Positions 8,524 through 58,361 of a DNA stretch of 64,000 bases are shown piece after piece. How positions within the stretch are numbered: position 1 is the stretch's first letter; each line of letters opens with the position of its first letter. The notes beneath the pieces are model-generated. The model searched no databases, was not told the origin of the DNA, and was given only the letters and a program-made list of their open reading frames with translations. Position numbers and translations under genes: made by a program. Origin of the DNA: Dudresnaya verticillata (lineage: Eukaryota); the NCBI GenBank assembly GCA_977862235.1, contig OZ374561.1, positions 1,550,001 to 1,614,000 on the forward strand, given 5' to 3'.

Positions 8524-8549
8524 CCCAGTGTCAGGAGTTGGTACCCTTA

Positions 8550-11107: not shown

Positions 11108-11215
11108 GATGCAGTCGTAGAGTTGCTTGAACGTCGTGGACGATTAGCGACGAACGTCTAGAGACGGAAGGTCGGACGTCGCACGACGGAGTAACTCGTT
11201 GAAACGTAGCACACT

Positions 11216-11232
11216 TCTAGGTCGAGAGACCA
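11216..11232 (-). other. Primer binding site of E1
   Basis: TGGTCTCTCGACCTAGA, 2 nt inside the LTR end; near-identical to the PBS of E2-E4. Confidence 0.9.
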
Positions 11233-11234
11233 GT

Positions 11235-12146
11235 TGTAGTGCAAACGTCGATGACGAAACACCGCCGAGCAGTTCGGGGCTCGGTGGGTAGCGACGCCTG
11301 CGGCGATGAATGGCCTCGCCGTGGGCGTCTGGTGGTAGAGCGGTTGACTCGCCTTGGGCGGACTGTAAACGCCCTTGGCGGAAAAGAAGAACAAAAGAAA
11401 ACAGAAAGGGAACACGTCGAGGACGGGTAGAGACGTGGAAGCACGGAGGTAGACGCTTAGCCGTAGGCAGCGGTAGGGTACGCGCGTACTGAACGGGGAA
11501 GTCTGGACCAAGGCCGGCTTGTCGGGGTTTACTGTGTCGTCAGAGACGGATCAACTAAGTATAGAATTACCTAGCGGCGGCGACGCGGATGCACGCGTCA
11601 CGCGGGAACTCGGGACACGTGTTGTCCCGAGGCGCGTCTGACAGATCCGTCCGTCATGCAGCCGCGCTCCTGACAGATCACGCGTAGCTTCCCTGCGCGA
11701 GTCCTTACACCTACACGTGGACTACTTCCTTACAGCCGCGTGCGCCTCATGGCGCGTGCGATCTTGATTCACGCCAATCCCGATCCAGTCCGGATTCGGG
11801 CCAGCGATGCGGATGCGCCAGGCTTACAGGCGCGTGTCTTACACCCCTTAGTCCCGATGTGGGATCCCGATGTGGGATCCCGATCGGATCCGGATTCGGG
11901 CCACGCTTACAGCGAACATTCCCGCCACTGCGCCATGCGCGTACACGTGGCGCCGTACAGTGGCCGGGTTCAGGCGTGCGGTCTGCACGCCCAGCGAGCC
12001 GTTCTGGCCCGAGTGGCCAGCGGCATGCGTCGGTGACGTGTTTGCGCCGCGCGCGGGTTGAGCGCGCCGTTGGCGGTCGTCCGTCGGTAGACGCTGAATA
12101 TCAACCCGCTTGAAAGCGAAAACGGGGGACCCCCCCTGGCACTACA
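11235..12146 (-). repeat. 5' LTR of E1 (912 bp)
   Basis: Perfect terminal inverted octamer TGTAGTGC...GCACTACA; abuts PBS; internal GGATCC-like 6-bp array; homologous to the solo LTR. Confidence 0.9.
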
Positions 12147-12306: not shown

Positions 12307-12653
12307 TGTAGTGCCAGGGGTGGGCCTGTACTTTTCACTCTGAGCGTGCCGACGGAAAAGAGCCTCCGGCGTCCCAATCGCCGTTGGCGCTCGAACACGT
12401 CATTGACGACTGGCCCTCCGCCGTACGGACGCTGCAACCTCACGCTGGTGAGCATCGGACCCCGGGTACTGTACGCCCGGCGTGCCACAGATCCGGATTG
12501 TACACCGAGATCAACGGGGTATAACGCGCGGGTATGTGAGCCTGGCCGGGATCCGGATCGGATCAGGATCGTACATCGAGATCAATCATCGGGATCCACC
12601 GTAATGTAAGGCGCACGCCTGTAATGGCCCGCGCCTGCAACGCAGGCACCGAT
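12307..12653 (+). repeat. Family-1 solo LTR, 5' part
   Basis: Starts TGTAGTGCCAGGGG like the E1 LTR; preceded by GTCGG (12302-12306). Confidence 0.88.
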
Positions 12654-13552
12654 AACAACAATTTCGCCGGCTACAGAATTTCCAAAACAGAACAGAATTT
12701 TTTGAGGGTCCTTGAATCCCGGCGTTTGATAGCGCGTTGGAAAGGGGGCGCTACCCTGAGAGTAGTGGTGCAAACAGATCGGAGCAAACGCAAATAGTTT
12801 CGGAGTTATGCGCTCCGGCATATGGGCCTCCCCCGGGGTCGAAAGTTCCCGAAAGTTGTGATTTTTCCGAAAAGTTCCCATTAAAAATTCTCCAGAAATT
12901 GATTCTGGCCCGTCCCGCCGCCCGCGCCCCCGCCCCCCGACCGCACACCGCATTCTGGCGACTTCCCGCCGCATTCCGACGCGCTCGGACTTGGCTTCCC
13001 ACCGCATTCCGACGCGCGCTCGGCCACCTCCCCCCGTCCGACAGCCACTCCCACCATCACCCTTCCTGGTGCTGCTACTGGCCCACGCATTCCGCATTCT
13101 GGCGCGTGCACACGCGCTCTGCTTCTGCGTTGCGCGTAATGAGGCGCGCTTCCCCACCCGGGTGGGGCCCCTCCCAGACCCGTAGTGCCGCTCCCCGCCC
13201 CAGTCCTGCCTGTGACCGCACTCTGTCTCACGCTCCCTGCCGTTCACCGACACCTCGCCGTCACCCTTCCCCGCGCTCCTGCGTACCGCGCCCGGCCGCA
13301 TTCTGACACCTCCACATCAAGTTGGCGCATTCGGGCGCATGGTCAGCCCCGCCCAGCAGTCCCCCGACACGACTCCCTCACCCCTACCCCGCTCTCGAGC
13401 GGCACGGTCACCCGCATTCTGACCTGTCCTCACAACTGGGCCCACTACCCGTCCGACCTGGTACACTACCAGGTAGCTAAGCCACTTGCGCACCCGCGGT
13501 TCGGACTCAACTTGTGGCGTAGACTGACGCTACAGGCGTCGATTTCCCTTGC
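12654..13552 (+). repeat. Left TIR (~900 bp) with reiterated CGCATTC motifs
   Basis: 12654..12956 is the reverse complement of 31704..32006; 12951..13552 is the reverse complement of 25327..26035. Confidence 0.93.
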
Positions 13553-13729
13553 GGTTCTGCACAACGGCCTGACCCCATTGCATTCTGTTGTCTGCGCCGC
13601 GTTTATTGCGCCGCAGCTGAGGACCATGCCATACTTCAGTGGGGCACATCCCCGATTGTAGGCCGCCAAATGGACTGAATCGCATTGCTGTGCTCATGGG
13701 AGAAGGCCACCACTTTACTATCTCTAAAG

Positions 13730-14670
13730 TTAGCAATCGCTGCTATCATGCTTGCGCATATACAGCCCTTCACAACTAGACAGTTCATTGTTCAGGCTCC
13801 TCATGATGCACATCCTCACCTCCGGTTTCATTGCGCGGCTGTTGGACATGTATAATTTTGTGCAAAGCAGATGTGTGTAGCGGTCCAGTTGATACGCGTT
13901 CTCTCCGCCCCTGTGCAGCGTTTCGACGATCGCGAAGTCTATAGCATGGGCTGCACCGTGTACGTACTTGCCCCTTCCCACGAGAAGGATTGTCTTCAGC
14001 AACAACCTGTACAACTTTTCCAAAGCTTTCTGATGGTGGGAATGCTCCATCATCGTCTTGTCTGCGTAAAATTGCTGTGATGATTCCCAAGCCATTTGGG
14101 CACGATCCAGGTCATTGTGGTTGTCCAGAATGTCGTCGTCACTGCTAGGGCTTTGGTGCGTCCATTTTCGTGCCTCACGATTAAGATCTTCCTCCATCCG
14201 ACGTTTAACGGCGCTGTATAGCTATTACACATCCAGAATCAAGTAATCCATGGTCTCAATACAGCGGTATTCTGGTCACAGCATATTATGGTGGTGAACG
14301 AACACTTCGTTTCATCTCAGCTCTCTTTCCGAAATGGCCGAGGCCTTTAACTGCGATAGGATCACTGCGTGCCCGGACAATACATGGTCCATCTTTCCAC
14401 GAGCTCACGGGTGTCCATTTCATATGCGTTGGAGATAGCCCTGGGCGCACTCCGGTACGTAGTTGATCAATCACTTACTGCCAATATGCCGCAACGTTGC
14501 CAACAACTGCAGCAGTACGGCACATGTGCCACACTCGCGACAGCCTTCCGTGACAGATTCTGTTTGGTGGACCAAATATAACCCCCGCGTTCATAGTACG
14601 GCACGTGGAAGCACTGGCGTTATTCGAGTAAATGGTGCCTGAAAGACGTCGAATTCATGGACCATGGCGG
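13730..14670 (-). pseudogene. Disrupted ORF of unknown function directly downstream of the MTase
   Basis: Collinear minus-strand ORF pieces (14286..14474, 13730..14197) with protein-like composition; no family recognised. Confidence 0.4.
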
Positions 14671-14759: not shown

Positions 14760-17747
14760 CTAACCAATCTTCTTCATGTTGTGCAAGTCCCACGAGAACA
14801 ACAAGCCGTTTAGGCCCTTGAGATTGGCAGGAGGGTCCTCTACTCCCTTGAATATATACGGATACGAACTTAGCTCATACTCCGCCATGACCTTCAAACT
14901 GTAGACGACCACAAGATGCTCCCCTGGGTTGGCAGATTCTGACAGATCGTGGCCGTGCAAGCGTTCATTCCAGTTCCCTCCTGGAGTCTTTTCAGGATGC
15001 AACACGGCCTCCCCCACTTCCTTATCATTTGCAAGAAGCGTGACTCTGTCTCCGGCCTTGGGCATTGCACAAGGTTCAGGTGTTTTCCTTCTCCTGCACT
15101 TTTCATTCTGCTCCACACTTCCTACAACTATGTCTTCACTCCTGCCGTGCTTCTCGATACTCTCTTCGGGGTCATCCAATACGTGCTCGGACGGTGTTGT
15201 GAGATGGGACATTTCAGGTCCCTTCTTCGTTACGGAATGGTTTGTTGGTTGAGCAGAATCTGTTTTGACAACACTACCTCTTGCTGCCTCACCGATACCA
15301 TTCAGTTCGTCATGAGCACTTGATTCCAAACGTTTACGACCTGTCTTCATTTTATATGCTTCCGTGGCAAGCCTACGCAAACGTTCAGCCCCCAGCTTGA
15401 ATGTTTCGACCTGTAATTCGATTAGTGTACACCGACGATCTGTTCTGAGAGCTGCAATCCCAGTCGTCATGGTTCCGCTGTGCATATCCAGAACTGACCC
15501 ACCCTCCGGGCAGAATGTTGTCATTATCTCCACAAGTACTTCGGGAGACTTCTCTTCGACCAGAACTGGGGACTTGGTGCCTGGGCGTAGCAACTTGTGT
15601 TTCGGTGTTGGTAGAGAGGACATGCACGCGAATTTCCGCTTTTCTGGGGAGGGGATGCAGTGATACTCGCTCCTAAGGTCGAGCGAGAACCCTCCGCCAT
15701 GCTGACCTAGGGCACGCGCCATGACGGCTATTTCCACACAGTTCTGGGGCATATCGCTCCCCCGATGTTCCTGCATGGTCTTGGGGTCTTTGGAGAATAC
15801 GAATGGGTATGCTGGACACATGAATTGTGCCTTCTTCAGAGCATCGTGGAATACACTGAAGTTCAGGAATGACGTGAAAACAAACAACCACCCCCCTGCT
15901 ACAAGTACGCGCCTCGAGAACTCAACTATCTTCTTAATGTCTTCCTCGCTGAGGTAATTATCGAATGAACTCCCCGACTTAGACTGCGATTTCGGTGTAC
16001 CGTATGGTGGATCTGTGAGGATTAAATCGAATCTTTTGTCACCTTCCTTCATTACGGTACTGTCGTAGCTCTGCCATGTCATCTGAAAGCATGTCAGTTT
16101 CATTTCCGCAAGATAATCTATTGGAACAGAAAGCGATCCGTCCTCCACCGGCACAGGATTAGTACCCATGTTGAGGCGAACAGACTGCTTTGATGACACA
16201 GTTGATATAGTGGGGTCTGTGGGACTCTTTTCCGGTACAGAATGCTCTTTGGCTGCACATGCAGCTGTAGGGTCTGCGTTCTGGACGGGTGCCTGTCCAG
16301 ATTCTGCTGGTTCGCGAACTTCTTCCCTTTTCGAATTGGTTGATGTTACTAAGCACAAAACCTCGTCGTCGTTAGAGATTACGGTAGCGTCCACCTGCGG
16401 TGACAACGTGCAGTCCAAATTCTGTTGACCGTCAGAATCTTTTGCTCCACATGCATTCGAACCCAGGCGGGTCATGACAGCGTCATCACGTCTGCCTTCT
16501 GTCGAATCCATCACAGTTTGCAGATCTTTGTACTTCTGCAACTTCACTGGGGTCTCTTCCGTACAACACTCTCTGTACATCTCAACTATTGTTTTCAACA
16601 GTGTACGGTCATTACCTCGATTCATGATGACCTCGACGTCCAGCTTCGTAGTGTGTAACAGGTTTTCTCTTAATGTACTCATGCCTGACGGCCATTCTGT
16701 CCTCTCCCTCATCGCTTCAAATTTCCGAGTCTCGGAAAGGGCGGCTGAAGCTTTCACGAATTGCTCTTGTGTGTGTCTGGCCGAAACAGGTTTGAAATTG
16801 TGTGTCCTTGACACCTCTCGAAGCCTGTACAGGGTAGCTATTTGAACAGTAATGCCTTTGTCAGAGCTGCCTGCATTCATAAAGGCCTTGGAAGACTTGA
16901 TGGAACTGACGTGAATGAAGCGTCTGTATACTCTGCAATCCAGATTCTGCATCGCAACGTTTGAGTCTATGGCCTTTCCGGAAGCAGTCAACAGTTGCAT
17001 AGTTGCTAGTTCAGGGACCTCCTCCTTCATTATCTTCCCAATTACATCGATAACGCGACGGTCAAGAAGAAGAACGGTTGCCGCTGTCTGTTTGATAGCG
17101 TTTTCCGATAGGTGACTGCATCCATCGTATGCTTCGGCAACTGCCGTCGCAGTCGGAATCTTCCCATTACTGGCTTCGAGACGGTCTGCCTCTTTCCTCA
17201 GACCGCATATCTGATCGTAAAACGTGGTCTCTACAAAAAGGCTGGAGTCGTGCTTTCTGTTCTGATGACGAGCCAGTTGCTTCAGAATCTGGATGTTGTG
17301 CCCCCCTTTAAGCACAGTGGCAGTCAAAGCAAACCCCTTCCATGTCTCCCGGTCTTCATCGATTAGCTCCATAATGGCGATAAGTCGATGCATGCCATCA
17401 ACCACTCCGAACCACTCCGACCGACTGGAGGCCTCTTCTTTCACCTGTTTCTTTGTGTACTCTGTCCCATCCGCATTCCGTTTAGCTCGTAGAAACTCAA
17501 AAATGAAACTCCTGAAGGGACCTGTTAGGCGAGCCAGTACGGGCGCATCAGAACCGGCAATGTACCCGTTGTTGTAGTTAGCGCTCCTCGTCCCACCACC
17601 CCTGAAAATCTTATTGAGCCTCTCAACACCGGATCTCGAGTCCCTTATATCAGTCATCGGAACACAGGACCTGGGGTCTATTCGAATGTTGGTAGACCCC
17701 TCCATGACATCTCCAAATAGTGCCTGTGCCATCTCCTCCTTCCTCAA
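14760..17747 (-). CDS. ParB/Srx-like domain fused to a beta-class N6-adenine/N4-cytosine DNA methyltransferase plus a C-terminal domain shared with the transposase
   Basis: VVDGMHRLIA (ParB-like, ~17385-17400); FDLILTDPPYG motif IV (DPPY at 16002-16013); RVLVAGG; EK.PEVL; SAM-binding motif I GGSVLDMHSGTMTTGIAA (~15470-15500); IEL. The IV-before-I order defines the beta class. Confidence 0.9.
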   Translation of the reverse strand: MRKEEMAQALFGDVMEGSTNIRIDPRSCVPMTDIRDSRSGVERLNKIFRGGGTRSANYNNGYIAGSDAPVLARLTGPFRSFIFEFLRAKRNADGTEYTKKQVKEEASSRSEWFGVVDGMHRLIAIMELIDEDRETWKGFALTATVLKGGHNIQILKQLARHQNRKHDSSLFVETTFYDQICGLRKEADRLEASNGKIPTATAVAEAYDGCSHLSENAIKQTAATVLLLDRRVIDVIGKIMKEEVPELATMQLLTASGKAIDSNVAMQNLDCRVYRRFIHVSSIKSSKAFMNAGSSDKGITVQIATLYRLREVSRTHNFKPVSARHTQEQFVKASAALSETRKFEAMRERTEWPSGMSTLRENLLHTTKLDVEVIMNRGNDRTLLKTIVEMYRECCTEETPVKLQKYKDLQTVMDSTEGRRDDAVMTRLGSNACGAKDSDGQQNLDCTLSPQVDATVISNDDEVLCLVTSTNSKREEVREPAESGQAPVQNADPTAACAAKEHSVPEKSPTDPTISTVSSKQSVRLNMGTNPVPVEDGSLSVPIDYLAEMKLTCFQMTWQSYDSTVMKEGDKRFDLILTDPPYGTPKSQSKSGSSFDNYLSEEDIKKIVEFSRRVLVAGGWLFVFTSFLNFSVFHDALKKAQFMCPAYPFVFSKDPKTMQEHRGSDMPQNCVEIAVMARALGQHGGGFSLDLRSEYHCIPSPEKRKFACMSSLPTPKHKLLRPGTKSPVLVEEKSPEVLVEIMTTFCPEGGSVLDMHSGTMTTGIAALRTDRRCTLIELQVETFKLGAERLRRLATEAYKMKTGRKRLESSAHDELNGIGEAARGSVVKTDSAQPTNHSVTKKGPEMSHLTTPSEHVLDDPEESIEKHGRSEDIVVGSVEQNEKCRRRKTPEPCAMPKAGDRVTLLANDKEVGEAVLHPEKTPGGNWNERLHGHDLSESANPGEHLVVVYSLKVMAEYELSSYPYIFKGVEDPPANLKGLNGLLFSWDLHNMKKIG

Positions 17748-17749
17748 GG

Positions 17750-18710
17750 GCTCACTTGACCCCCTGCTCCGCTTCTTGCGCTTCGAAATGGTGTGCGAGA
17801 GAAAGAGTCACTGTGCACGTGAAAACCGCTCTCCTTGAAAGAGTACGGAAAGGGGTACTGCATGTCCGACGAGTTGTCCAGATTCTGTTCAGAAAACCTT
17901 CCGCAAGAAATTCTTTACGTCCCCGGCTCATGTTTGCACGGTGCAGTTTTCGACTGACACCATACGGGCTTTCGACACACTGGACGGCGGCAGTACGACA
18001 TGGATGTGCCGCAAATTCCGAGATGGCACGGGAGGTCACGTGGATTGTTCACCGGGTGTGGGCAGTCTCCATCAGAACTATCCTTAGCACAGGCCGTACA
18101 GTTGGAATTGGTAGGATGCAGGTTTCAGCGGACCTGCAGGGCGAGATGTAACAAAGTCAATTAGGGCATGCTGCTCGCTGTCCCAGCCGACTTGGCCGGA
18201 CTTTGAAGTTGAGGCCGGCCTGGCCAGGTGCTGATACTGCGAGTAAAATAGCATGCCACACACGGTTTCGGTGAGTACTGGCACACCGTTGCCAGCGGCG
18301 TGCCAGCGGGGGGCGCGGCGGTCAATTTACGAGGAACAGGTTCTCGGGGGTGGGAGGTGTCAACACCTGTGCGTGCAATATCCGTATCAGGGAACAGGTG
18401 GGGCGAGAGCGCCGGGCCAAATAGCTGTTCATTTGATGTGGCAAAATGCGCTCTGAAAAACCTGTATAGATTTTCTGTCCAATGATATTGAATAAGCTTG
18501 TAAAAGGGTCTTTCCATTGGGCCGCCGTCAACACCTTTACAGCTTCTGAATGCGGCCAAGTCACATTGCTATGAGAACAGATATTGCGCTTCACGGCAAC
18601 GGAGGAGCCCAAAGTGCAATATCAGTATCGGGGAACAGGTCCTGAGAGCCAGCAAACTCCACAATCTATCTGGCCTCGGCGCTGCTCCCGCTCCTGCTGC
18701 TGCTCATCTT
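17750..18710 (-). pseudogene. Probable disrupted N-terminal extension or upstream ORF of the MTase gene
   Basis: The MTase frame stays open upstream apart from a TGA near 17808; the peptide LFPDTDIA is encoded twice (~18375-18400 and ~18615-18640). Confidence 0.4.
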
Positions 18711-19314
18711 CCCGTTCCGCACGCACAACAACCTGCACCCGTCGCACCTGTGCCTAGTTCATCCGCAGTCCGCGCTGCGCTTCGTCTGCCGCGCCGCCGA
18801 CACCCTCACGTACCTTGCCGTGGCATCCGCCCGCCTGCAAGTCCCCCTCGACCACTTGCGCCGCTTCGCCGCCGTCCCAATCCCCGCTAACGTCCGCGTC
18901 GACACGCAGCTCCACCCTCGCTTCGCCGTCGAGGTCATCGCGCTGCACCACCCGCTGCACTTAGCCTCCCTCGCGCGCGTGGACCACTGCCAAGCCGCCG
19001 TTCAAGCGCTCAACGCCTTCCTGCACGAGTCCCGCGTAGACTCGCACAACCCACTGCCGCACCCGCCCGCCTCGCTCTTCGACCACGCCCCGGTCGACGC
19101 GCGCCAGCCTGACCATGCGCCCACGCTTGGCCTTGAAACAGGAGGCGAGCAATTTACTCCCATTGATGGCATGAACGAGGGCGAGGCGCTGTATGTCGCC
19201 CATGGGCGCCCTTTTGCCACGTGATTGAAAGAGCAGCATACTTCAAACATCTGCAGCCACCCCATCACTGCTGCCGCAATACAACATCTGCATCCTCGGG
19301 ATGTCTCTTCAGAT

Positions 19315-19566
19315 ACACGGGGTTGAATGTACGGACATGTCGAGATAATCTTCTGACCTTTATCCCGGGCAATGTCGCAAACGAAATGCACGAGCTTTCC
19401 TGCAATTCCTTGGCCACGCATGCGACTCTGGCACATATGTACTGTACATGTCGTAGGCAGTAACCCCATCAACATCTTTCAGAGGATAGCGAAGAACAGC
19501 CAGGTCATCCACCCCTTCAGGGGTGAGCGAAAAACGATTCTCTTCCGGTTCATGTCGAATCGCCAT
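19315..19566 (-). pseudogene. Captured GNAT acetyltransferase (YjdJ/NATD1-like), frameshifted
   Basis: MAIRHEPEENRF..YDMYSTYVPES / MRGQGIAGKLV..ARDKGQKIISTCPYI across two frames; RGQGIA acetyl-CoA motif and C-P-Y signature. Confidence 0.8.
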
Positions 19567-20399
19567 TGCCGCTGCAGGAGTAGCGCTCACCTTCAGGCTG
19601 CAGGCCCTATTCCAAAACCTCTTGCTTGATGATGGGAGCTTTGGGGGCCCTAACGAAGGATATCCTAGCGGAGATAAGGGCGATGGGTGGGAAAAGATCC
19701 TTTCAGCAACGTAGCTGTGCAGAGCAGATGAACGCTGACAAAGACCTTCTGCTGCTGTCGACCGCACTACCCCAGGCTAGGAGGGTACTTGTCGAGAAGA
19801 TGGAGGTCAGTAAAATGGTGAGTTGAAATACCCATGCATCGTGGGAAATGCAAGAGGTTGAGCCGCGGGTAGGCGCAACATACGCTCACCTTAAAATGCG
19901 AGACGAGAAACTGTAGCGGGATTCGCATAGTCTGGTAAAGTGGGGGACCCTCGCCGGCACCGTCGTTGCTCGTGCAACTGGGAAATCGCTTGTTGCTGCT
20001 GTGGACGCAAGTAAGGGTGAGCGTGAATGTTTTTGAGGTCCAGAACGCTCGACGGAGAAACTTCCGGAAGACTGATGTATCGCATCGAAACTCAACGATA
20101 AAAAACAGGACGACCTCGCCATCCGGATTTAATTTGTCGGGGCTATTAGATACACTGTTCATGTTCTGCTGTCCAGGACGGTGCAGGACCATAGTGCCAT
20201 AGCTTTTGTTTTTGCGCTGTGGTGCACGGTTCATGAACAAAACTAGCCCCTGTTTGTGACTTTTGCAGTGATCGTACCGACAGTCAAGGGATGCCACTTA
20301 CTTCGCTATCAATATGTAGCAAGTAATCGCTGTCGACTTGCCCTGTCTCCACACTCTTGATCCTTGTTACGCCTAACGCCAAGCGCAATAAGACGCCAG

Positions 20400-21480
20400 C
20401 GTTTTGCGTGGCACTCATTTCATGTAGCACAAGCCAACACTCCTTCTTCTCCCGGGGCCCAGATTTCGGCATCTGCTTGAGCTCGAGCTCAAGGAGATGC
20501 CGAAATACCAGGATCCTGGTAGTCAAGTTTTCCGTACTGCAATACAAGCCCCTGATGCGGCCTTTGTATTCTCAAGGCAGTTAAACGATATCCCAACAAG
20601 AGCTTCGACTCGGTTACCTTGAAATGCTTACCGCCGACTTCGTAAATCAATGCTGCTGCTGCCCGCAGGCAAGCATGAAATAAGTCTTCTGTATATGTGA
20701 CTAGTCCTGCATTTCGTGAGAGAACGCTGACAATTGTTTCCGACATTTCTCCTGCAACGGAAGCTTCGTTGGGAAGGGTAAGTTTCAGGAGCTTTTGCAC
20801 GTTGTTGACTGCATTCAGAGTTAAGGAATCCTGGGATATTCTCAGCGATTGGACAACCATAGGCAAAAAGGGCTCTACCATTGCTTGTAACTCACGTGAT
20901 TCTGTACCAGAGCCCATTACGACGTCCATGATCTTGCTGATCGTGCTTCCCAACAACAGCATACCAAAACTGATCATTCGGTGCCTATTAGCTACAGTGT
21001 TTCTCAGTTCGTCCTCTTCACCACGCGAATCAGAAATGGCGGTAATGAGCTCCTTCCCCTTCGGCTTTGTGCCTTCGGTTAGAGATTGATGACTGACTGT
21101 GAATGCATCAGCTGAGAGCACAGAACTATTCGTAGAAAGCCCTCGAAGCAGTTTTTGTAAGACGATATCAAGCCGTGGTAAGAGCTTAGATGAAGATGTT
21201 TGCACCATCACTTCTTCGAATGGACATTCGATCAGCCCGGACTTATCACACTCACTGCGCCTGAATGAAATGTTGCGAGTCGGGCGATGCGTTTAACACA
21301 TTCATAAGCTCTCGATGCACGTGCCGAAGCCTCCCTCTGTCTTGAGCTGGAAACATTCGGGTCTTGAAAGTCATTGCCAATAACAGATACACCGCTTTCT
21401 AACTCTTCCATCAAGTTCGTTGTAATGCTAGGAACAAGTTCATCATTTGGATACACAGGCGCGGCAACATTCTCAGCTTC
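20400..21480 (-). pseudogene. Captured internal fragment of a HEAT-repeat protein resembling UTP20 (SSU processome)
   Basis: Blocks RGLSTN, NRHRMISFGMLLL, AMVEPFLPMVVQSL, LLKLTLP and DLFHACLR resemble my recollection of UTP20; frameshifted; no gene start or end. Confidence 0.6.
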
Positions 21481-22231
21481 TCTATTGCCGAATTCTTGAA
21501 CGCCAATGCGTGCCGTCCAGGATGAGCATGCTCACCCACGCACGGCAATCTGCAGACGACTCACACGGTTCGCAGTGCGGACGGCTGAGATGAGCTAGGC
21601 CCGTTCGGCTGATATGCGCCTGCCCATGATGCCCGCGCTCACGCCAGGCTTGGTAATGTGCGTCGTGAACCGGACGTTGTTGTCGAGGAGAGATACGAGC
21701 CCTGTTGTCTGCTTCGCCGATCCCAAAACCATCAGAGAGACTGAAACAACTGGAGCAGCAGCATTGCCATTCGTGCTGTGCGGCAACTTCCTTGGAAGCG
21801 TGTGAAAACGATATCAACTCGTGATGTCGGCGCTCTGCAGCCGCCAGGACACCCCAGGGTGACCGTCAGCTTTATGTGTCCGCCTCCCAGAAGCTGCAGC
21901 TTGTGTGGCTCCGCAGGCATGCGGAGAGTTGTCCTGAAATGTAATTGGCCAAGTGCAGAACCAGAATCTGATCACAAACAGAATCTGGGTTGCAGAATAA
22001 CCCAGATGCACCCCGTGCAGCCACTCGTGCCGCTCCACGGGTGTGAAGCCTCAAGAGCAGGCAACAGGCGGCGCGCCGCGGTATCACAGAGGGTATTTAA
22101 TGCGCACGCGTTTTGCTGCGAAGTGCTGCGCCTCCCCACCAGGTCGGCCAGGTGCCTTAACAGACTGCAAAGTGGGCGCTCTGCTTAGAGCGTGAAGGGA
22201 AGACAGAACGAGTGGCACTCTCACAAGCTGT

Positions 22232-25200
22232 GTGCAGATACCGTCGCGGAAGGACATTTTGAACGACATGGAAATGAGCCCGGCAACTACGGATTGTGCT
22301 GAGCGAGAAAATGAAGCAAAGAAAGGAGGAGGCAGCGCGCGCGACGAAGGGCGTGTTGCTCTTCTGTATGACAGGGAAATGGTCGGCACTGCTATTGTCA
22401 AGAGACCGGGGACAAAAGAGGACGCAGACCAGTCTGGCAGGTATTGTGTCAGCCTGCATGGCCACAAATTGTCTCCCAGTCAGAAAAAAGGGGAGAAGCT
22501 GGTTGTGGTTTACCGAGCACAAATCATCCAACCGTATGAGAAACTTCAGTACAAATACAAGTACAAGAGAACGGACTCAGTTCCGCACACACTTGGGGAG
22601 ATGGGTGGGGGTTTTCATGCATGGGATGTGAACTACATTCAGGAGCTCGGCAATCGAGAAATCGCGCCGTTGTGCCAGAGACGGGTGTACTCTCCACGAC
22701 AGGGCATAGTTCGTCGCAGAATTTACCCAATACTGAGCAATTGCCCCCCGACGTCAACTGCAGAAAACACTGCCGCAGCGGTGGTCCCTACCGCATCGCC
22801 CCAGCAGATGACACCAGTTGACACGACCAGGCTAATATCACCCCTCCAACAACGTGCGGGGCCGCAAGCGGATGCCGCAGCGCGGTCAATTCGAACAACA
22901 CCCCCGCCTGGCAATGCTCCGAGCAGTGAGGAAATGAGTGAACCGCGAGAGCATTTGAGGGAGGCCAGCCATGATGATGCGGACGCCGTACGACACGTGT
23001 CGGAAGGTGATGACAATGCGTATGACCCTTTTCAGAAGGTGCAGGTCAGGACAAAGCGAAAGTATACTTACAGGAAGAGAAAGCAGCAGACCTTCAGTGG
23101 GAGAGGAAGTCTTCAGAAGAGACGTAGGCACCTGTTCAAAGACCTGGAACGCGCAAACACGCAGTCAATGAGATGCTGCATCGGGAACAAGTGCTTCCAA
23201 AGTGTGGAGCAAGTGTACTTAAAGGCGGAGGCGCGCAGAATTGCCGGAATGAACGTAGAAGCAAGGCGAACGTATCTTCGCAATCTGTTGGACACGAGAA
23301 AGATGAAATACTTTTTCAACCACCAGCCTGTCTGTTGCAACTTTCTGGAGCAGGCCTTTGGATTCTCCCGTGACTTACAGACCTCTGTAAAAGGCACGAG
23401 GCAGGCCCGGAAGCTGCAGCTCCCAAACAATGCGAGGCGTGATACCTCATCCCATCAGCAGGATACTATCATTTGCTTCCTTGAACGTCTTGCAGACAGC
23501 ACTGCTGAACCAATGCCCGATAACGGGGAGTTACACCTCCCCTACTTTCAGAAATCAGTTGTGTATGACATATTCAAATTGGACCACACCAGGCTGTACA
23601 GAAACAGGGAAATTCCGTGACAGAGTTACTTTTACTTTGTATGGAAACACAGTTGCTCCCGCATTAAGGTGCGAAAGACACACCGATTTGCAAAGTGCAG
23701 CGAATGCGAACTCATTCGCGAGCGACTTGCTCAGGCAGGGACCTCTGGAGCAGGCACTGAACACCTGCATGAGCGGCGCAACATTCACTTGAAATTAATA
23801 CAGGCAGAGAGACGTGAATATCAGAAAAAATGTGAGAAGGCGATACTATTGCCACAAGAGTATTGCTCCCTCATAGTGGATGGTGCTGATCAGTCCGCAT
23901 TTGGACTTCCCCATTTTGTGTTGTCGTCCAAAGCCAGCATTGGGCATGCCATGAAAGCGAAACGTATTGGGGTGCTTGAAAACAGGGCTGAGAAGCGTCT
24001 GCACTTGTACACAATGACCGGTGAGTTCGAGACCGGCGCGAACCACATTATCGAGGCGTTGCACAGAACGCTTTCGGACAAAATAGTCCAGAGGAGAGCT
24101 ACAAGGGACTTTATTTCTACAAGTAGACAACTGTTCGAGAGAGAACAAAAATACCTTTTTGTTCTCATACCTGGAGAGTCTCGTTGCATGGGGTGTGTTC
24201 CAAGAGGTCTTCGTGTCTTTCCTGCCCGTCGGGCACACTCACACAGATATAGATCAGGCCTTTTCGTGCACGGCACGCCGGCTTAAAGTTCGGGACGCAG
24301 TCACAATGACTGATTTGATGGAAGAGCTTCGGCAGTCGTACAGTCCAGAACCAGTTGTCAGTCGCATGCTTCAAATTACGAATTTCTCAGGCCTGTGTCG
24401 ACAGGAAGGATGCATTGGTAATGTTGAGGCATTCACGACCTATCGCTATTTCAGATTCCACCGTGTGGGTCCAGCTGCGACGGAAGAGGCAGAATCTGTT
24501 GCAGCTTTCGTGACAGGCTGTCAATTGAGAATGACATGCGCGGATGACTGGGTCCCGTTGCAGACAGGAGGAGAGCATAAGGGGTTCATACTATCCCCTC
24601 CTGACCTTGGAAAGACTCCAGCAACAGTGGTCAAATCGCCGCCAGATTTGAAGGAAGTCAACGACAGGTTTCGTTCTGAAGAGACACGTGTGAATGACAC
24701 GGGAAAGAAGAGGGAGCTGCAGGAATTGCGGGACCACGTGTACAGAGATAGGCTGGAAACGTTTCATTGGGATATGGGACGCATATTTGAGACAAGGGGA
24801 AAGTAGAGCGGAAGAGTGGCGCTGGAGTACGTACCGGAAGGGGATGACGGTGAGGAGGAGACTGTGACCCCCTCTTCAGACCTGCAGTACACGAAGAACT
24901 GCTTCGTTGCCGTTGTGAGGGAGAACGCCACCGCACGATGCCCATTTTGGATTGGACAGATTCTAGACGTTGTGCAGGACGCTACGGGAAAGGCTACTGA
25001 GCTGTATATAGGATGGTACGAGGCGTATGACTGTAAGGGTGCTTGGGACGGAAAGTACAAGGCATCCATATACTCAGCGACTAAGCGCTTGGGACGGAAA
25101 GTACAAGGCATCCATATACTCAGCGACTAAGCAGCCATGGACTGGTACTGTCGGCGTCGCGACCGTAATGGTCGAATTCGAAGCTCTTACGAAGAGACGT

Positions 25201-25266
25201 CTACCGCAGCTCGTCCAGAAGAGAATCAGAGAATCGCCGTTGTTAGTTAGGTATGCCGGCTCTTGA
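22232..25266 (+). pseudogene. DDD-type transposase (Sola-like / DUF7869-type), ~1000 aa when repaired
   Basis: KCSEC..H..H zinc motif; IVDGADQ; LFLQVDNCSRENKN; FLPVGHTHTDIDQAFS. Stops at 23618 and 24804; frameshifts near 24085 and 25087. C-terminal FWIGQI..LYIGWY domain. Confidence 0.82.
25041..25132 (+). repeat. Exact 46-bp tandem duplication that frameshifts the transposase C-terminus
   Basis: GCTTGGGACGGAAAGTACAAGGCATCCATATACTCAGCGACTAAGC twice. Confidence 0.95.
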
Positions 25267-25326
25267 TACGAGAAACAGCTACAACCAGTAAATTATACTC
25301 TCAAATTGATGCAGCACACGATAAAT

Positions 25327-26035
25327 GCAAGGCCATTCGACGCCTGTAGCGCCCGTCTACGCCACAAGCTAATTCTGAACCGCGGGTGCGCAAACGGCTT
25401 AGCTACCTGGTAGTGTACCAGGTCGGACGGGTAGTGGGCCCAGTTATGAGGACGGGTCAGAATGCGGGTGTCCGTGCCGCACGGGAGCGGGGTAGGGGTG
25501 AGGGAGGCGTGTCGGGGGACTGCTGGGCGGGTCTGAACATGCGTCAGAATGCGGGCACTTGACGAGGACGTGTCAGAATGCGGCCGGGGGCGGTGCCCAG
25601 GACTGCGGGGAAGGGTGAGGGAGGCGTGTCGGGGGACTGCTGGGAAGGGCTGACCATGCGCCCGAATGCGCCAACTTGATGTGGAGGTGTCAGAATGCGG
25701 CCGGGCGCGGTGCGCAGGAGCGCGGGGAAGGGTGACGGCGAGGTGTCGGTGAACGGCAGGGAGCGTAAGACAGAGTGCGGTCACAGGCAGGACTGGGGCG
25801 GGGAGCGGCACTACGGGTCTGGGAGGGGGTGGGGAAGCGCGCCTCATTACGCACAAGGCAGAAGAAGAGCGCGTGTGCACGCGCCAGAATGCGGAATGCG
25901 TGGGCCAGTAGCAGCACCAGGAAGGGTGATGGTGGGAGTGGCTGTCGGACGGGGGGAGGTGTCCGAGCGCGCGTCGGAATGCGGTGGGAAGCCAAGTCCG
26001 AGCGCGTCGGAATGCGGCGGGAAGTCGCCAGAATG
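25327..26035 (-). repeat. Right TIR, inner part (with an extra internal sub-repeat)
   Basis: Reverse complement of 12951..13552. Confidence 0.92.
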
Positions 26036-26675
26036 TATTTTCCGTGGGCCTTTGCAACTTTTTTTGCAACTCCCCCTGCGCACCACTGGGGCCAATGTCA
26101 CGCTGATTGCAACTCCGTCAGAAAGACTCGAATGACTGGCTCAATTGTCACGCAACCACAGGGCGGAAGGCGTGCCGTGTCGCACAGCTGTGCTACTGTA
26201 CTATACTGTACAGTAGTACTGTGTACTCTCGCGCCGTCCCGGACTGCCATAAATTCGGCTTCTGGCCCGTATATAACCCGTGCTAACATTTCAGACAATT
26301 GAAACAATTGAAAACAATCATACTAATAATGGCGAGCTGATCTGTGCTAGCACGCTTCTTTACAATCACTGCTGTAATAAATGAGTCCATCTCTCTAATG
26401 ACATATTCATATTGTACTGGAAGACTGTTTCGATGGCGCTGTAGAGCTGTGCCTCGCAACCACAGTCATTACTTCGCGCGAAGTCACAGTGGGTGTGACC
26501 GCAACTCAGTTGGACGTCATTCAGATTAAACAAGCAAGGTCTGAGTGCCGGCGACAATTTGCTCTGAGAAATACCCTCGTCCGCCTGCTTCTTCAGCTCT
26601 CTTCCACACTCGTACATTGCTGGATGCGCGCTCGGCGCGACTAGACGCTCATAAGATGCAGACACACAGACGTTA

Positions 26676-27830
26676 GTGTCACAGTCAGAGTCGCCAATCC
26701 ATCTAACATTGTTGCACCAGCAAGGTCAACCTTGCTTGAGGGCAAAGGCATTGTCAAGACCTCCTCGCGCCCCGTTCCTCCCCTCTTTTGCGCCAACAAT
26801 GCTGGCTATCTCTGATGCATCTCAACTGTCCACAGAGCCTCCGAATGAATCGTTTTCGAGAGGTGGGGCATCACCACGCCTAAGTCAATTCTTTTCCTCT
26901 TTTGAAACGGCCCAAACTTTCTCTCAGCTCTGCACGAACAATGGGCGTGGTCAGCGTGCAATCATTGAAACCGCTGCACTGCTCAATCAAGTTTGGGGCT
27001 CCCGTGACCCGAATAACCCGGAACTGTGCTTCGATAATCATGATGGAAGACAGGGGACAGCCATTTACAGACCCCCTCGACGGATGGCTGGGGGTGTCGT
27101 TTTCCCGTGCTCTCTCGTTACCTCTGAAGGACTACCACCGCAGACAGTCACTATTGTAAACCACAATGTTACAATCAGCGCCTCTGCTCGGGTGATAACT
27201 GAAGCTGCTTTAGCAAGTACAAGAAAGTATATGGAAGAAACTCCGAAGGCAGGAAGCCATGAGTCTGGAAGAAACCATAAGAAGCGGCAGCTGACATTCA
27301 AGTCAAACAGAGGGACCAACGTTTCAATGCAGAAGAACCGCAACAAGAAAGGAAGATTTGAAAGGAAGCAACTGGTACTTCAAAATCAGTCTCGTGGGGT
27401 CGCGCCATCCATTCCGCTTCACACACGTGATCTTCGTACATTGCTGAGGCAATGGGTTGTTGGGGATCCCGAAAGGGGTCTACCTATACCGCTTGCAGAT
27501 TTTTCGTTGGCTCAAAGAAACGGGAAGGATGCATCCGGAAAAATTGTTAAGCCCCTGTATAGTAGGAGACGGGTTGTTGCGCTTGCGACACTCTTAGCGC
27601 TACAAGATGCCAAAGAGAATGGGAAGCCATTTGCCCAATCCATTGGCGTCAATCTAATCGAGCTTAAAAGGCCGAACTTGGAGCAAATTAGAATGTCGCA
27701 GTGGGAGGTTTTATGCAAGAAGTATTTACAGAGAGCGTCCAGGAAGCTCTCCGACGCTGAGATTATTTCTTTAGGGAAGAAAATGTACTGTAGTGATGTT
27801 TTAGATTTGCTGCCGGATTGCGGCAGTTAG
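26676..27830 (+). CDS. 384-aa ORF with a possible GCR1_C-like DNA-binding domain
   Basis: RDLRTLLRQWVVGDPERGLPIPLADF...LYSRRRVV resembles the W..G....P..L...YSRR pattern of GCR1_C. Confidence 0.5.
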   Translation: MSQSESPIHLTLLHQQGQPCLRAKALSRPPRAPFLPSFAPTMLAISDASQLSTEPPNESFSRGGASPRLSQFFSSFETAQTFSQLCTNNGRGQRAIIETAALLNQVWGSRDPNNPELCFDNHDGRQGTAIYRPPRRMAGGVVFPCSLVTSEGLPPQTVTIVNHNVTISASARVITEAALASTRKYMEETPKAGSHESGRNHKKRQLTFKSNRGTNVSMQKNRNKKGRFERKQLVLQNQSRGVAPSIPLHTRDLRTLLRQWVVGDPERGLPIPLADFSLAQRNGKDASGKIVKPLYSRRRVVALATLLALQDAKENGKPFAQSIGVNLIELKRPNLEQIRMSQWEVLCKKYLQRASRKLSDAEIISLGKKMYCSDVLDLLPDCGS

Positions 27831-30147
27831 ATAAATGCAGGCCTGCGATAATCTAACTGTCCGGGGGTAAGCAGTTGCAGCCCAGCATAGTAGCCAATAC
27901 AACCTTGTCAATTGTGTCAAGGGAACTATTTAGGTTTCTCTACAAACTTGAAGACTGGACAACAAGACAATGTGTTGGGAGCGGAATATTCACCAATGTC
28001 CTTGCTGTGGGGAAGACCAAATAGACTCGGCTTGTATCGTTGAGGTAGCTTTGAATTTTAGGCTACGATCAGTCGATGAAGCCTAATCACGGTTGGGAAT
28101 TTCACTACTGAGAACCGCAGTACTGTGAGAAGGAAAGGTATAGCACAAATGCAGCATACAACAAATATTATGGCATTCGATGCATTTCTCGTTAGGGCTC
28201 GACAAACGTTTACACGGATGAAAACGGGGCTGCCTTCATTGCCTCACAAAATACACATTGAAGTTATACTCGATCCAGATCACCCACAGCAGCAGGGTAC
28301 ATGCTGATCTCATCTTTTGTGCTTTTTATCCGAATGTTTAGACTATGTTTTAGTTGCGGTCTACGGTCTCTACAGTCTATTAGGCACAGACCTGCCTTCT
28401 GCATGTCATGGTTTAGCGCGAGTGTGAAATAGTAGAAGTACTGTACCGGACATCAGGTTTGATACTAGGAAACTACGCGTTGAGAACAACTATCAACCAT
28501 ACCCGTGAAGAAGAAAAACTATTCACAACGTACACATATGTATGATCTGTGCCTTTGAACAGAACTGTAACAGCGGCCGCTACGTATATCAATATCAAGG
28601 ATAGGTCTTAAACGAGAAACTAATATTGTTCTCCAATTGCTATAACGCAGTACGAATCATTCTGTCCCCGTGTTTCAATAATCACTTCGATGACATTAAT
28701 ACTACACAAAGCATTGTCGGGGGATGGATTACATCGGCCTAATGTGGACTACTCACTATTGGAGAGACATGAACAACTTTCGCGGGCAGTTGTTTAATGT
28801 CCCACAGATTCCCTGCCATAGAATTGGTCGTCGTCGAAGAAAGGCAATGATGTATGCGCTTTCAGGCCCGATTGTTGAGAACACCGATAGAATTGGGTAT
28901 TGACGGAATCATCGACATGGGGATCATCAACATGGGGACATTTACTTCAACGTCTCGTGCTGCTAAACTACTTTCGATGCCTCCCACAATAACTGTGAAC
29001 CCACGTGGGTATTGTACAACAAATCACACTTGCTTCGCAGCCACAGCGACCAAAACCGACAAGATACAATAATAAAGCTTCACACTATGTTGTCCGCATA
29101 CTTACCGACATTGACAGACACGGGCGGTACAAAATTTAGACCTTCACTCTCAACCACCTCACAAACAGTACTTTCGTAGGCTGCAAAGGAAATATTTCTG
29201 TACACTTCTAGTACTGGATGGCATCCTTGGTACGCCTTTCCAATCCCACAGAGGTGTCTTCCAAAGTCTTCGTAGTCTCCACAGGGGCCGCAGTAAGTGC
29301 TATCACTGACCCCTTGGACGTCCCTGTACGAGTAACAGGAACAGCGTTTCTGTATGGAAACCGTGTAGCACTGGAAGGGCCATGTAGATATGGACGTAGT
29401 GAGGAGCGGACGCAGCACGAAATAAAATGACCAGAACTACACTGTGACATCTCGACGGAGTATAAACCGTCTCCGCGGCATGTAGACCTACGTTGACAAA
29501 CCCCTTGTGCACGGCCGAGATAAGGCCCTCGTTCGACAGAGCAAAACCGGTACCTGAAGTAGGGGCAGCATTGAACGCCTCACTGATACCCATGGGTATC
29601 CGTGAGGCGTTGAATTGTGCACAATACGTCCCGTTCAGGGGCCGACGGCGTTGGATACGGCAGATATAACTGGCACACAGATCCCACGGAGACAGCACCT
29701 GACAGCAGAGCACATATACGGGAGCACGAGTGCCACAAATAAGGACAAGTCGAGTAAACATATTGAACTGTTGAGTCGGTAGGCAGCGGAGAGTTGATGA
29801 AGGGGAAGGGTTCATGGGAAGCTCTCTTGACTATGTTTGTACCTGTAATCACAGGTAGATGTGATGCGATGGAGTCGTGGTGCATGGGAATATTTTAGAC
29901 TGCGGTCGAGACGTTAAGGGCTTTAAGTACGGAACGGAAGGAACTATTGATTCGGTGTGAGATAACTGCAGCTTTTCATGGCTGGAATAATAAACTTGAA
30001 GGATGGCAAAGCTAAGAGCGTCGGCATGCAGGATGGAGCAGGACGCATTCTATGCAGAACGCTTTGTCTAATACCATTTTGGCATTGCATGAAACGAGAG
30101 AGAGATGCACTTTAGTTAGCGAGATCTTACTAGCCCCATAAGGGGGC

Positions 30148-31107
30148 TTAGCAAATGTCAGGGTCTAGACAACAGTCAACGAGCTTACGCCGATTAACAG
30201 CCACAGCTGCGCAGTGGAGAACTAAAGAAGTGAGACGAGTGAGGAGGGATAATTTCTCAGCAGTAGGAGATGTCCCCTTCTTCATGGCAAAGAAGGTGGC
30301 CACATGCTGTGCGCCACAATCGAAACCTGAACCCATAGCACCGTAGATGTCCATCATCATAGGATGGAGGTCAATGTTGTTGGTTGCGCACAAGCGGCGA
30401 AAAAGCTGTTTTTCTCCTCTTCGTGGAGATGGATTGCATGGTTCTGAGCAGGATGACCAGAAAGTGTATGAGATGAAACAACTGAGACGTCGAATGCCTG
30501 AGGCTTGGGGGAAAACCCAGGATCATCAACATACACGTCCATACGAAGTTGGTCGCGGCGGTCCTCACCGCTCGACTTGAGAAGTGTTGCAACTGTTGCA
30601 ACTGCGCGTGCACGTGTCTGCGGGCAAAGTACGGCTTTGTTCGGCAGAATAAGAGGTCCGAAACTGTTCAGTCCTACTACTGTAGTGTAGAAAATGTAGC
30701 AAAGCGATTCGAGTTCCATGGCATGCACAATCTATGTATAGAGCTAGAAGCATAGCTATACTACAGACTCTAGGTATTGTCAACGTAGATGTATATCGTT
30801 TGGCTCTGGGATGAGTCTGTGGATAACAGGTAGCTAAAATAAAATATAGGTTCTGGTTTGAACAACTGCAGTAAGGAAGTGGACTCGAAGCTTCGCAACA
30901 GGGCACACAACCACATTCAATTTGTAGACAATGTGACATGCAGTTATGGAAACAGCCATCATAGTGCGAATGGAGGGTCTGAAGTATCTGAACACTACCT
31001 CTCTTGATCGCAGTGCTCAGCCGTTCATGTAGTGCGACCGTGAAGCGCTTCCGTTTGCTCAGTGGCGTTTGAATTAGCACATTTGCATAGCGGTGTCCTG
31101 ATTGCAT
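30148..31107 (-). pseudogene. Degenerate Cys/His + restriction-like endonuclease region of CRE/R2-type non-LTR retroelement style, with no RT detected
   Basis: FTVALHERL..C..H.C; LRMD..AFDVSV..EEEK..C...LHPMMMDIYGAMG..LTSLVLH, spread over several frames. Confidence 0.55.
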
Positions 31108-31703
31108 TCAAGTATTGCATGCACCAGCTGTTAACGACTCAGGTTCGCAAGCACGCTCTTGCTTCCTCCAGGGGCCTTAGATGCTCTTTCGGTGGCACGG
31201 TTTGGATGAGGGGAAGGAACAGACCTGGCTTTTCCGAGCGGGTCGGGTAATCGGACTCAAATCGGTGTGCGCCATATATGGGATTGATACAGTAGATGTT
31301 CCCTTATTTAATTTAGACGCAGTACGGTACTCAGCGTATGTGACGGTCGTGACAGTAGTCACACCGCGCCGTGGAGGGACTGCCAAGATATTGTCTGACA
31401 CAGCTTTCTGGCGTGTAGGGCGCTTTCCGCATCGCAACTATTTCAATGATCTGGGAACTATGGGGAATTGCAACAGTGGGCAGTTTTAAGCGGAAATATT
31501 TGTTGCTATGCAGTTCCCTTCAGTTCTCCGGCAGTTGCGGGACGGTAAATTGACCGCGGAGAAGTTCGTCCCTCCGCGATGTGACTGGCCGCGTAAAGCA
31601 CGCCATCGTCACGTCACCCAATGGTGAGCGTTACGCTACCACGGCGCGTGACGTCACCCAATGTTATGACAACACTTGGCGAGTCCTGAGTTGCAATTCC
31701 CGT

Positions 31704-32006
31704 AGAATGCGGTGTGCGGTCGGGGGGCGGGGGCGCGGGCGGCGGGACGGGGCAGAATCAATTTCTGGAGAATTTTTAATTGGGACTTTTCGGAAAAATC
31801 ACAACTTTCGGGAACTTTCGACCCCGGGGGAGGCCCATATGCCGGAGCGCATAACTCCGAAACTATTTGCGTTTGCTCCGATCTGTTTGCACCACTATTC
31901 TCAGGGTAGCGCCCCCTTTCCAACGCGCTATCGAACGCCGGGATTCAAGGGCCCTCAAAAAATTCTGTTCTGTTTTGGAAATTCTGTAGCCGCCGAAATT
32001 AGTGTT
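31704..32006 (-). repeat. Right TIR, outer part
   Basis: Reverse complement of 12654..12956. Confidence 0.93.
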
Positions 32007-32010
32007 GGAT

Positions 32011-32723
32011 CGGGATCCGAATCCGGATCGCCCGCACCTCTGCACGCACGCGCCTGCAAGTTACCCATTGCCCGCGCGCACGTGGCTACATGACTACACG
32101 GACTTGTCAGACGCAGCGTGGCTTGACACGCGTCCTGTGCCACGCCGCCGCCGCTTGCATCGTAGTAGTATTATATTAGGTAATCCGTCTGAGACGTAGG
32201 AGTAAATCCCGACAAGCCGGTCTTGGTACCTAAAGGCCCCTTTCCGCTAGTGCGTATTTCCCACCGCTGCTGTTAGGCAAAGCGTCAGTATCAACAGTGC
32301 TTCCCCGTTTTCCCGGCAAGTCGTTCCGGATAGCTCAGTGCCCCTCCACCGCTAGTGCGTACCCCCGCACCGCTGCCGTGAGGCTCAAGCGCTAGTATCT
32401 ACCGTGCTTCGCCGTTACCCCGTTCAAGTCGGCTTCGGACTCGAAGGCCCCTTTCCCGCTAGTGCGTACATCTACCGTACGACAGCGCTAAGTCACAAGC
32501 GTCGATCCTACCGTACTTCAACGTATCTACCGTCTTCGTGACGTGTTCTTCTTTTGTTTCGTCGTGTTTTCCTTGCTGTTTCAGCTACCGCCTTGGGCGT
32601 TTACAGTCCGCCCTACGGCGTTGTCCCATCGCTCTACCACCCTCACTCGCCTCCAGGCGCTGCTACCCTCCGGGCCCCGAACTGCCCGGGAGTGCATTAC
32701 GTCCCAGACGTTTTGGCACTTCA
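32011..32723 (+). repeat. Family-1 solo LTR, 3' part
   Basis: Collinear with the E1 LTR; ends GCACTTCA, followed by TSD GTCGG (32724-32728) and no PBS. Confidence 0.88.
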
Positions 32724-45444: not shown

Positions 45445-45445
45445 C

Positions 45446-57980: not shown

Positions 57981-58361
57981 CATCTCATTAGCGTCGTGCT
58001 GTTCCCAGCAATGCCATATGGAGTGGCCAGCAATGCACTGGGCCTTATAGTGCGTCCGCACGTCCGGCGCCTTACAGGCGCATGCCGCGCGCAGTATTAC
58101 CCGCGCATTACAGGCGCAAAACACGTGTACGTGCTTATAGCCCCTGGCGGCTCATTGTACCACACCTTGCCGTCTACGACGTATCTCTCTATTCAGCACG
58201 GTACGCCCTTCCTTTTCCCCCTTTTTGCAGGGCTTATAGCCCTCCTAAGTCTCTAGCACCCTATTACCGAGCCAACTACCACGCGAGTGGGATTGGGCTT
58301 TCTAGACAGCTGTCGTGCTGTCGTGTCGTCTGTTTGTGGCTTGAAAGCCATTCTACTACAG

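Follow-up and report, generated by a model that had tools for sequence, protein, structure and literature searches.

What, if anything, ties together the transposase and the DNA methyltransferase that are encoded by one giant cut-and-paste transposon? The question is raised by the 64,000-nucleotide stretch of DNA analyzed here (the window), which holds a TIR transposon of about 19 kb with divergent transposase and methyltransferase (MTase) genes (Table 1). A domain of about 100 residues, here referred to as X, is common to both window proteins.

Homology between the two copies of X

The original prediction that the C terminus of the MTase and the N terminus of the transposase are homologous over about 100 amino acids was to be judged by pairwise alignment statistics, and the alignment is significant. 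A full-length BLASTP comparison of the two ORFs gave a single significant segment (36 of 103 positions identical, 35%; E, 4e-15), which pairs residues 901 to 995 of the MTase with residues 41 to 140 of the transposase, and all remaining segments had E values of at least 0.9. The Smith-Waterman score was 147, versus 41.9 ± 5.8 with a maximum of 69 for 500 shuffles. The protein segments quoted in the prediction and their coordinates were both found to be correct. At the DNA level, no similarity was detected between the two X-coding stretches (best local match of 25 nt, with a score of 20), which points to an old duplication. Recent copying of X inside the element was ruled out by this absence of DNA similarity and by the lack of mutual closeness of the two copies (see below). 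No third copy of X was found in the 64,000-nt window.

Table 1. Positions of the element, its genes, and its repeats in the window
Feature	Position	Strand	Remarks
MTase ORF, open, 995 codons	14760..17747	-	ParB-like N-terminal region, beta-class N6/N4 DNA methyltransferase, linker, domain X; PF01555, E 1.2e-10
DGMHR motif	17385..17399	-	MTase N-terminal region; motif reading
DPPY catalytic motif	16002..16013	-	Upstream of SAM-binding motif 15471-15491
Domain X, C-terminal MTase copy	14763..15053	-	Residues 899-995; predicted SH3-like beta-barrel
Domain X, N-terminal transposase copy	22346..22651	+	Residues 39-140; BLASTP match to MTase copy
DUF7869 transposase pseudogene, about 1000 codons	22232..25266	+	DUF7869 match, E 2.4e-25; four breaks
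Transposase ORF carrying X	22232..23620	+	N-terminal part of pseudogene
Transposase break 1, stop	23618-23620	+	Sequence
Transposase break 2, frameshift	near 24075-24095	+	Sequence
Transposase break 3, stop	24804-24806	+	Sequence
Transposase break 4, 46-bp tandem duplication	25041-25132	+	Sequence
Left TIR (about 0.9 kb)	12649..13564	+	6 CCGCATTC copies; exact terminus uncertain
Right TIR, inner part	25306..26035	-	96% identical to 12951-13564 in ungapped columns; 136/740 columns are gaps
Right TIR, outer part	31704..32013	-	97% identical to 12649-12956
5,668-bp insertion splitting the right TIR	26036..31703	.	AGAATG at both junctions (26030-26035, 31704-31709)
Spacer between the divergent genes	17900..22200	.	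Host-like gene fragments
GNAT acetyltransferase fragment, frameshifted	about 19300-19560	-	PF14542, E 1.1e-08
UTP20-like piece	20492-21292	-	E 1.5e-04

The element and its two genes

The TIRs are rich in the repeat CCGCATTC, which occurs 18 times in the window (2.8 expected), with 14 of the 18 copies lying in the TIRs. No perfect direct repeat that could represent a target site duplication was found at any candidate terminus of this one element copy. The insertion in the right TIR lies in one of the CCGCATTC/GAATG repeat units, with AGAATG duplicated. It contains a 391-codon open frame (26655-27827) that matches no Pfam family, and short TTGCAACT repeats lie close to each of its ends. The host-like fragments inside the element are reminiscent of Pack-type capture. 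A 155-codon ORF (13730-14197, minus strand) located 3' of the MTase gene within the element has no convincing Pfam match and is possibly the remnant of another accessory gene. On both sides, the flanks (3799-11560 and 32176 onward) contain retrotransposon-like ORFs, with reverse transcriptase, integrase, and chromodomain motifs recognized by eye; inverted LTR-like matches (11235-11458 versus 32497-32723) flank the element, which may have inserted into an LTR. Farther away, a direct repeat of 765 bp (44681-45445 and 57217-57981; 98% identical, 12.5 kb apart) probably represents the two LTRs of a retrotransposon that inserted recently. Long ORFs without introns, neighbors that resemble retrotransposons, and the published parallels (see below) point to a red alga as the likely host.

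The MTase gene is open, and the transposase copy is broken. In the MTase, the DPPY motif precedes the SAM-binding motif, which is the beta-class order and, together with the PF01555 match, marks it as a beta-class N6/N4 enzyme; its best PDB relative is DpnA (E, 1.2e-12), with CcrM at an E value of 5.4e-07. We take the DGMHR motif to be ParB/sulfiredoxin-like; Pfam gave no ParB match in this protein and no SET domain match in the window. Among the 23 related MTase rows, 6 are fragments without the catalytic region, and DPPY is kept in 9 and altered in 8 of the remaining 17. The relatives with an altered motif (P0014, P0030, P0032, P0049, P0054, P0060, P0067, and P0087) retain X and, where it is covered, the ParB-like region, which suggests a non-catalytic role for these proteins. 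The linkers of the MTases are unconserved, unlike the residues of X.

The transposase has three conserved motifs that contain Asp. DUF7869, which presumably represents the Sola transposase, was the sole transposase match in the window and in its relatives, and no match to Transposase_21 (PF02992), PF03017, or PF03004 was obtained. The C-terminal region (24807-25266, plus strand) is rich in Trp, is conserved in full-length relatives, and has no Pfam match; it may form a second barrel.

Distribution of X

A profile built from the two window copies was searched against 1.84 billion representatives at a cutoff of an E value of ≤0.001. This yielded 89 matches, one of which (P0058, consisting of CBM46 repeats) was dropped as false, leaving 88 representatives at 50% clustering. 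X-bearing proteins were classed by BLAST comparison with X-free class references, which split the 89 matches into 20 MTases, 9 transposases, 3 ParB-like proteins, and 57 without a class (56 and the false P0058); since every X-bearing homolog was retrieved via X itself, these counts give no frequency of X among such elements. The position of X is characteristic of each class. It lies at the C terminus in 20/20 ParB-like/N6-methyltransferases, is found inside the first 27 residues in 9/9 DUF7869 transposases, and lies inside the first 24 residues in all three ParB-like proteins, two of which end in a dioxygenase-like region. None of the 89 matches has two copies, and two more full-length MTases (39% identical) likewise terminate in X.

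In the proteins P0078 and P0092, motif reading points, besides X, to DGxHR and to an HxD...H pattern in the C-terminal part; Pfam and PDB searches with them returned nothing, and their similarity to the window is confined to X. When the profiles of the MTase class and the ParB class were compared with each other, X alone aligned (98%; E, 1.2e-13). Across the three protein classes, the mean identity of X is about 28 to 38%. The search for further carriers that had been proposed along with the original prediction gave 88 true matches and a third, ParB-like class in addition to the two that were anticipated. Judged by sequence, X is a conserved module of the MTase and the transposase in many divergent elements and is also present in this third class.

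Scanning metagenomes with the MTase alignment yielded six loci (L001 to L006), none of which has a detectable X, L004 to L006 being too short to judge and the MTase of L001 being cut off. L001 has the head-to-head layout of the window and an open DUF7869 transposase ORF without X. The L002 MTase has a terminus without X, and in the L003 MTase, a PHD-like Cys/His finger (2960-3125, plus strand) occupies the C-terminal slot, with a Pfam PHD E value of only 0.4. As the L001 transposase and the L002 and L003 MTases show, X is an optional, dispensable part of such elements.

Searches of other resources returned little. Word-index protein searches with X gave 0 matches in one case and 2 already known matches in the other, which is weak evidence; the ESM Atlas gave no usable match for two X domain queries; and scans of viral contigs, prokaryote genomes, and phages, which are insensitive, returned no relatives. 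PDB sequence searches with X produced only matches with E values of 0.5 to 1. No Pfam family is common to X, with any one family matching at most 2 of 87 members. In pattern, X has what we take to be a loose resemblance to the Tnp1/DUF8039 domain; PF03017 was not among the matches listed (25 of 32 Pfam families, 87 X members). With 88 representatives at 50% clustering and no Pfam match, X qualifies, at the level of sequence, as a new domain family.

History of the X copies

In mutual similarity, the two X copies of the window rank 24th and 14th of 88, and by this measure, they are not each other's closest relatives. Instead, X copies group by the class of their host protein, with 4 label changes versus 12.5 after shuffling among the 37 class-labelled rows. 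In an AU test of 37 class-labelled rows, without the class-unassigned matches, none of four topologies was rejected (p, 0.27 to 0.79), neither sister status of the window copies (p-AU, 0.37) nor monophyly of the transposase copies (p-AU, 0.27), and pairwise co-evolution is therefore neither shown nor excluded by this test. The proposal that the two genes co-evolved as one system stands insofar as the module is conserved in both proteins across many elements, but the pairwise co-evolution that it implied is not seen in the similarity ranks or in the clustering by class.

Nine transposase copies of X form a group of their own (SH-aLRT, 97), and eight of these, the ninth not being measurable, have 11 to 12 residues before the Trp-Asp pair, compared to 5 to 7 elsewhere. 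The window transposase copy is without these extra residues, as is P0029, and the closest relatives of the window transposase are P0107 and P0108, which are cluster mates of P0029 (46% versus 28 to 35%). Because the window copy and P0029 lack the insert and the window transposase core falls outside the group of six other X-bearing cores, X seems to have been passed down in two separate lines of transposases.

Predicted structure and conserved residues

With an alignment of 87 sequences, AlphaFold2 predicted a mostly beta fold for the MTase copy of X (pLDDT, 94.8; pTM, 0.85); a model made from two sequences only had a pLDDT of 44 and was unusable. The MTase copy is the one that was folded, and we infer an equal fold for the transposase copy from their homology. 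Foldseek found no match at an E value of ≤0.001 in the PDB or among viral models. Its top rows were for the most part SH3-like barrels, with the rows from the viral library being unnamed or uninformative. The best VIA-align match was Spt5 KOW6-7 (Z, 4.9; rmsd, 2.5; 52 residues), none reached a Z of 5 or more, and Tudor, chromo, and PWWP rows (Z, 4.0 to 4.4) were tied with KOW, PsaE, LSm, and CAP-Gly rows. X is predicted to be an SH3-like barrel, a designation of fold class and not of family.

The best-kept residues of X are His37, Leu41, Tyr68-Pro69-Tyr70, Glu/Asp76, Pro79, Trp92, and Asp93, with Trp92 conserved in 98%, Asp93 in 97%, and His37 in 94% across all classes. Aromatic and acidic residues together are the usual composition of methyl-lysine pockets. 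The median net charge is -3 (74 copies with a length of at least 95 residues), with 7/74 at +3 or more, and is -4 in the MTase class (23 copies); the window copies have charges of -4 (MTase) and +4 (transposase). Lys or Arg accounts for at most 58% of any column, the values for columns 34 and 46 being 49% and 58%.

What X might do

X is likely a docking tag common to the enzymes of the element, bringing them to the same place. The net acidic charge and the near-invariant aromatic and acidic residues argue for protein docking and against binding of the TIRs. As to the ligand, we tentatively favor a common basic or methylated peptide on chromatin, a leading candidate that still falls short of probable. 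Through its X, each enzyme would recognize one and the same basic peptide, in all likelihood a histone-tail-like chromatin mark, and the transposase, the MTase, and (in other elements) the ParB-dioxygenase would thereby meet on the same chromatin. Recognition of CCGCATTC would fall to other domains, namely, the ParB-like region and the Cys/His region of the transposase, and the MTase, with its DPPY motif, would put N6-methyladenine on the DNA of the element.

We prefer this chromatin ligand because of the acidic and aromatic signature, the absence of pairwise co-variation, and the presence of reader-like domains at the corresponding place in related MTases, such as the PHD-like finger of L003 (Pfam PHD E value, 0.4). 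Conservation is family-wide in three protein classes at about 28 to 38% mean identity, the model is confident, and its structural rows include KOW, Tudor, chromo, and PWWP domains; the median charge of -3 and the near-invariant His37, Tyr68, Tyr70, Glu/Asp76, Trp92, and Asp93 fit as well. On the other hand, a best Z of 4.9 over 52 residues falls among the values seen for a common arrangement, with KOW, LSm, PsaE, and CAP-Gly rows tied, the conserved aromatics may be mere core, and X is dispensable in the L001 transposase and in the L002 and L003 MTases; furthermore, the X of the window transposase is basic (+4). Published parallels, in the available text of their sources, are the chromodomain of N4CMT (PMC8885841) and the SET domain on red-algal PAG2.

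The original prediction had offered a common TIR-binding or dimerization module. X-X contacts could form homo- or heterodimers and thereby anchor the MTase and the ParB-dioxygenase directly on the transposase at the ends of the element, a possible arrangement but one that we regard as doubtful. Each protein has one X, nearly always terminal and never two, the window copies have opposite charges (-4 and +4), and X is kept in 8 of the 17 MTases with the region covered although DPPY is lost, which fits a scaffold. KorB is a ParB protein that dimerizes through an SH3-like C-terminal domain, and this domain turned up in the structural comparison (1igq; Z, 3.7; 47 residues), but it ranks 43rd and the match is generic. 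Moreover, cognate specificity predicts pairwise co-evolution, which is not seen (ranks of 24/88 and 14/88; 4 changes versus 12.5 shuffled), and most copies of every class are acidic. Delivery of both enzymes to the element ends by binding of X to the CCGCATTC repeats is unlikely. The TIRs do carry 14 CCGCATTC copies, SH3-like barrels are capable of binding nucleic acid (KOW and PWWP rows), the window transposase copy is at +4, and Lys/Arg reaches 49% in column 34 and 58% in column 46; however, the median charge is -4 for 23 MTase copies and -3 overall, the invariant residues are acidic and not basic, each of the two proteins contains other regions that could bind DNA, and L001, with the same layout, has an X-free transposase. 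The TIR-binding role is thus weakened by a median of -3 (74 copies) and by the lack of any column with 60% Lys/Arg.

Lastly, X could have arisen long ago as a by-product when domains were shuffled between adjoining transposon genes, with different roles or none in the three classes. Some related genes are without X, and the 9 other transposase copies stand apart, with 11 to 12 versus 5 to 7 residues before Trp-Asp (8 measured). Still, all classes retain the same residues (Trp92, 98%; Asp93, 97%; His37, 94%), while the DNA of the two window copies can no longer be aligned and the linkers are unconserved, and we consider this account very improbable.

More speculatively and with considerable doubt, X may be an addressing module private to the transposon and placed on the transposase, on a DNA-adenine writer, and on a putative 2OG-dioxygenase eraser, a common tag by which a giant algal transposon would build, on its own copies, a complex that joins mobility and epigenetic functions. 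Accessory genes for ParB, methyltransferase, and dioxygenase proteins of giant algal transposons have been proposed to modify their own elements, with no link to the transposase given in the available text (PMC12477816; bioRxiv 10.1101/2025.02.11.637652). X, small, predicted to be well folded, and present in all three classes, is a concrete candidate for such a link, and the X family should aid the annotation of giant algal elements.

Comparison with known systems

The closest parallel in layout is Sola1-1_Ec32 of Ectocarpus, which, in the parts of the paper available, is a 21.5-kb TIR transposon with a 282-bp TIR, AACCG termini, and a 4-bp TSD and has a gene for a 1104-aa ParB-like and N4/N6 methyltransferase protein on the strand opposite the transposase (PMC12477816). 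The window element is likewise a giant TIR element with a ParB-like and methyltransferase gene opposite the transposase, the ParB label here coming from a motif reading, but it differs in its TIR of about 0.9 kb, in its other ends, and in its lack of a clean TSD. Like Sola elements, it has terminal inverted repeats (about 0.9 kb, 96 to 97% identical). The window element appears to work like Sola1-1_Ec32, with Sola as a candidate superfamily. The available text of PMC12477816 makes no mention of a domain common to both Sola1-1_Ec32 proteins.

In red algae, mobile genes for methylases and ParB-dioxygenases are found on Plavaka, Mutator, and Zisupton elements, and according to the accessible text, PAG1-3 are Plavaka accessory genes that shift between transposon families, with PAG2 being an N6-adenine methylase (PF01555) with SET and PAG3 being ParB with a 2OG-oxygenase (bioRxiv 10.1101/2025.02.11.637652). 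As with these, the window element is a giant algal DNA transposon with a PF01555 N6-adenine methylase gene, and the X carriers P0078 and P0092 have, by motif, a PAG3-like build. Whereas PAG2 joins a methylase to SET, the window MTase joins a ParB-like region, a methylase, and X, and the PAG-bearing transposase is EnSpm/Plavaka, in contrast to the DUF7869 transposase found here. The window is without a SET match and without a PAG3-like gene and hence does not hold the PAG cassette. No common domain is described for the PAG proteins in the accessible text of that preprint (bioRxiv 10.1101/2025.02.11.637652).

Bdelloid N4CMT, as described in the available text, is a beta-class N6_N4_Mtase that methylates transposon DNA and ends in a chromodomain, for which chromatin reading is the expected role (PMC8885841). 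It shares with the window MTase the beta-class N6_N4_Mtase and a C-terminal add-on domain. N4CMT, however, is encoded by a host gene that acts in silencing, its motif is SPPY (4mC), and its chromodomain is a true one, whereas the window MTase is transposon borne and has DPPY and an unnamed barrel in common with the transposase. The ORF2/TnpA helpers of CACTA elements are, in the text available, second element-encoded proteins that support transposition (PMC4158355, PMC5751038). The window MTase is also a second protein encoded by the element, but unlike in the CACTA case, X is present on the transposase itself, and no match to PF03017, PF02992, or PF03004 was found. Membership in CACTA/EnSpm, judged by the Transposase_21 profile and by CACTA...TAGTG ends with a 3-bp TSD, fails on the transposase (DUF7869, no PF02992) and on the termini; TAGTG is present at 32000-32004, but the left end has CAACA at 12656-12660, and the flanks are TAA versus TTG.

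No description of a domain common to these proteins was found in the literature covered, to which most subscription papers and Repbase reports do not belong. Taken together, the layout of the element is one already published for Sola1-1_Ec32 and the red-algal PAG genes, and the domain common to its enzymes appears to be the new part.
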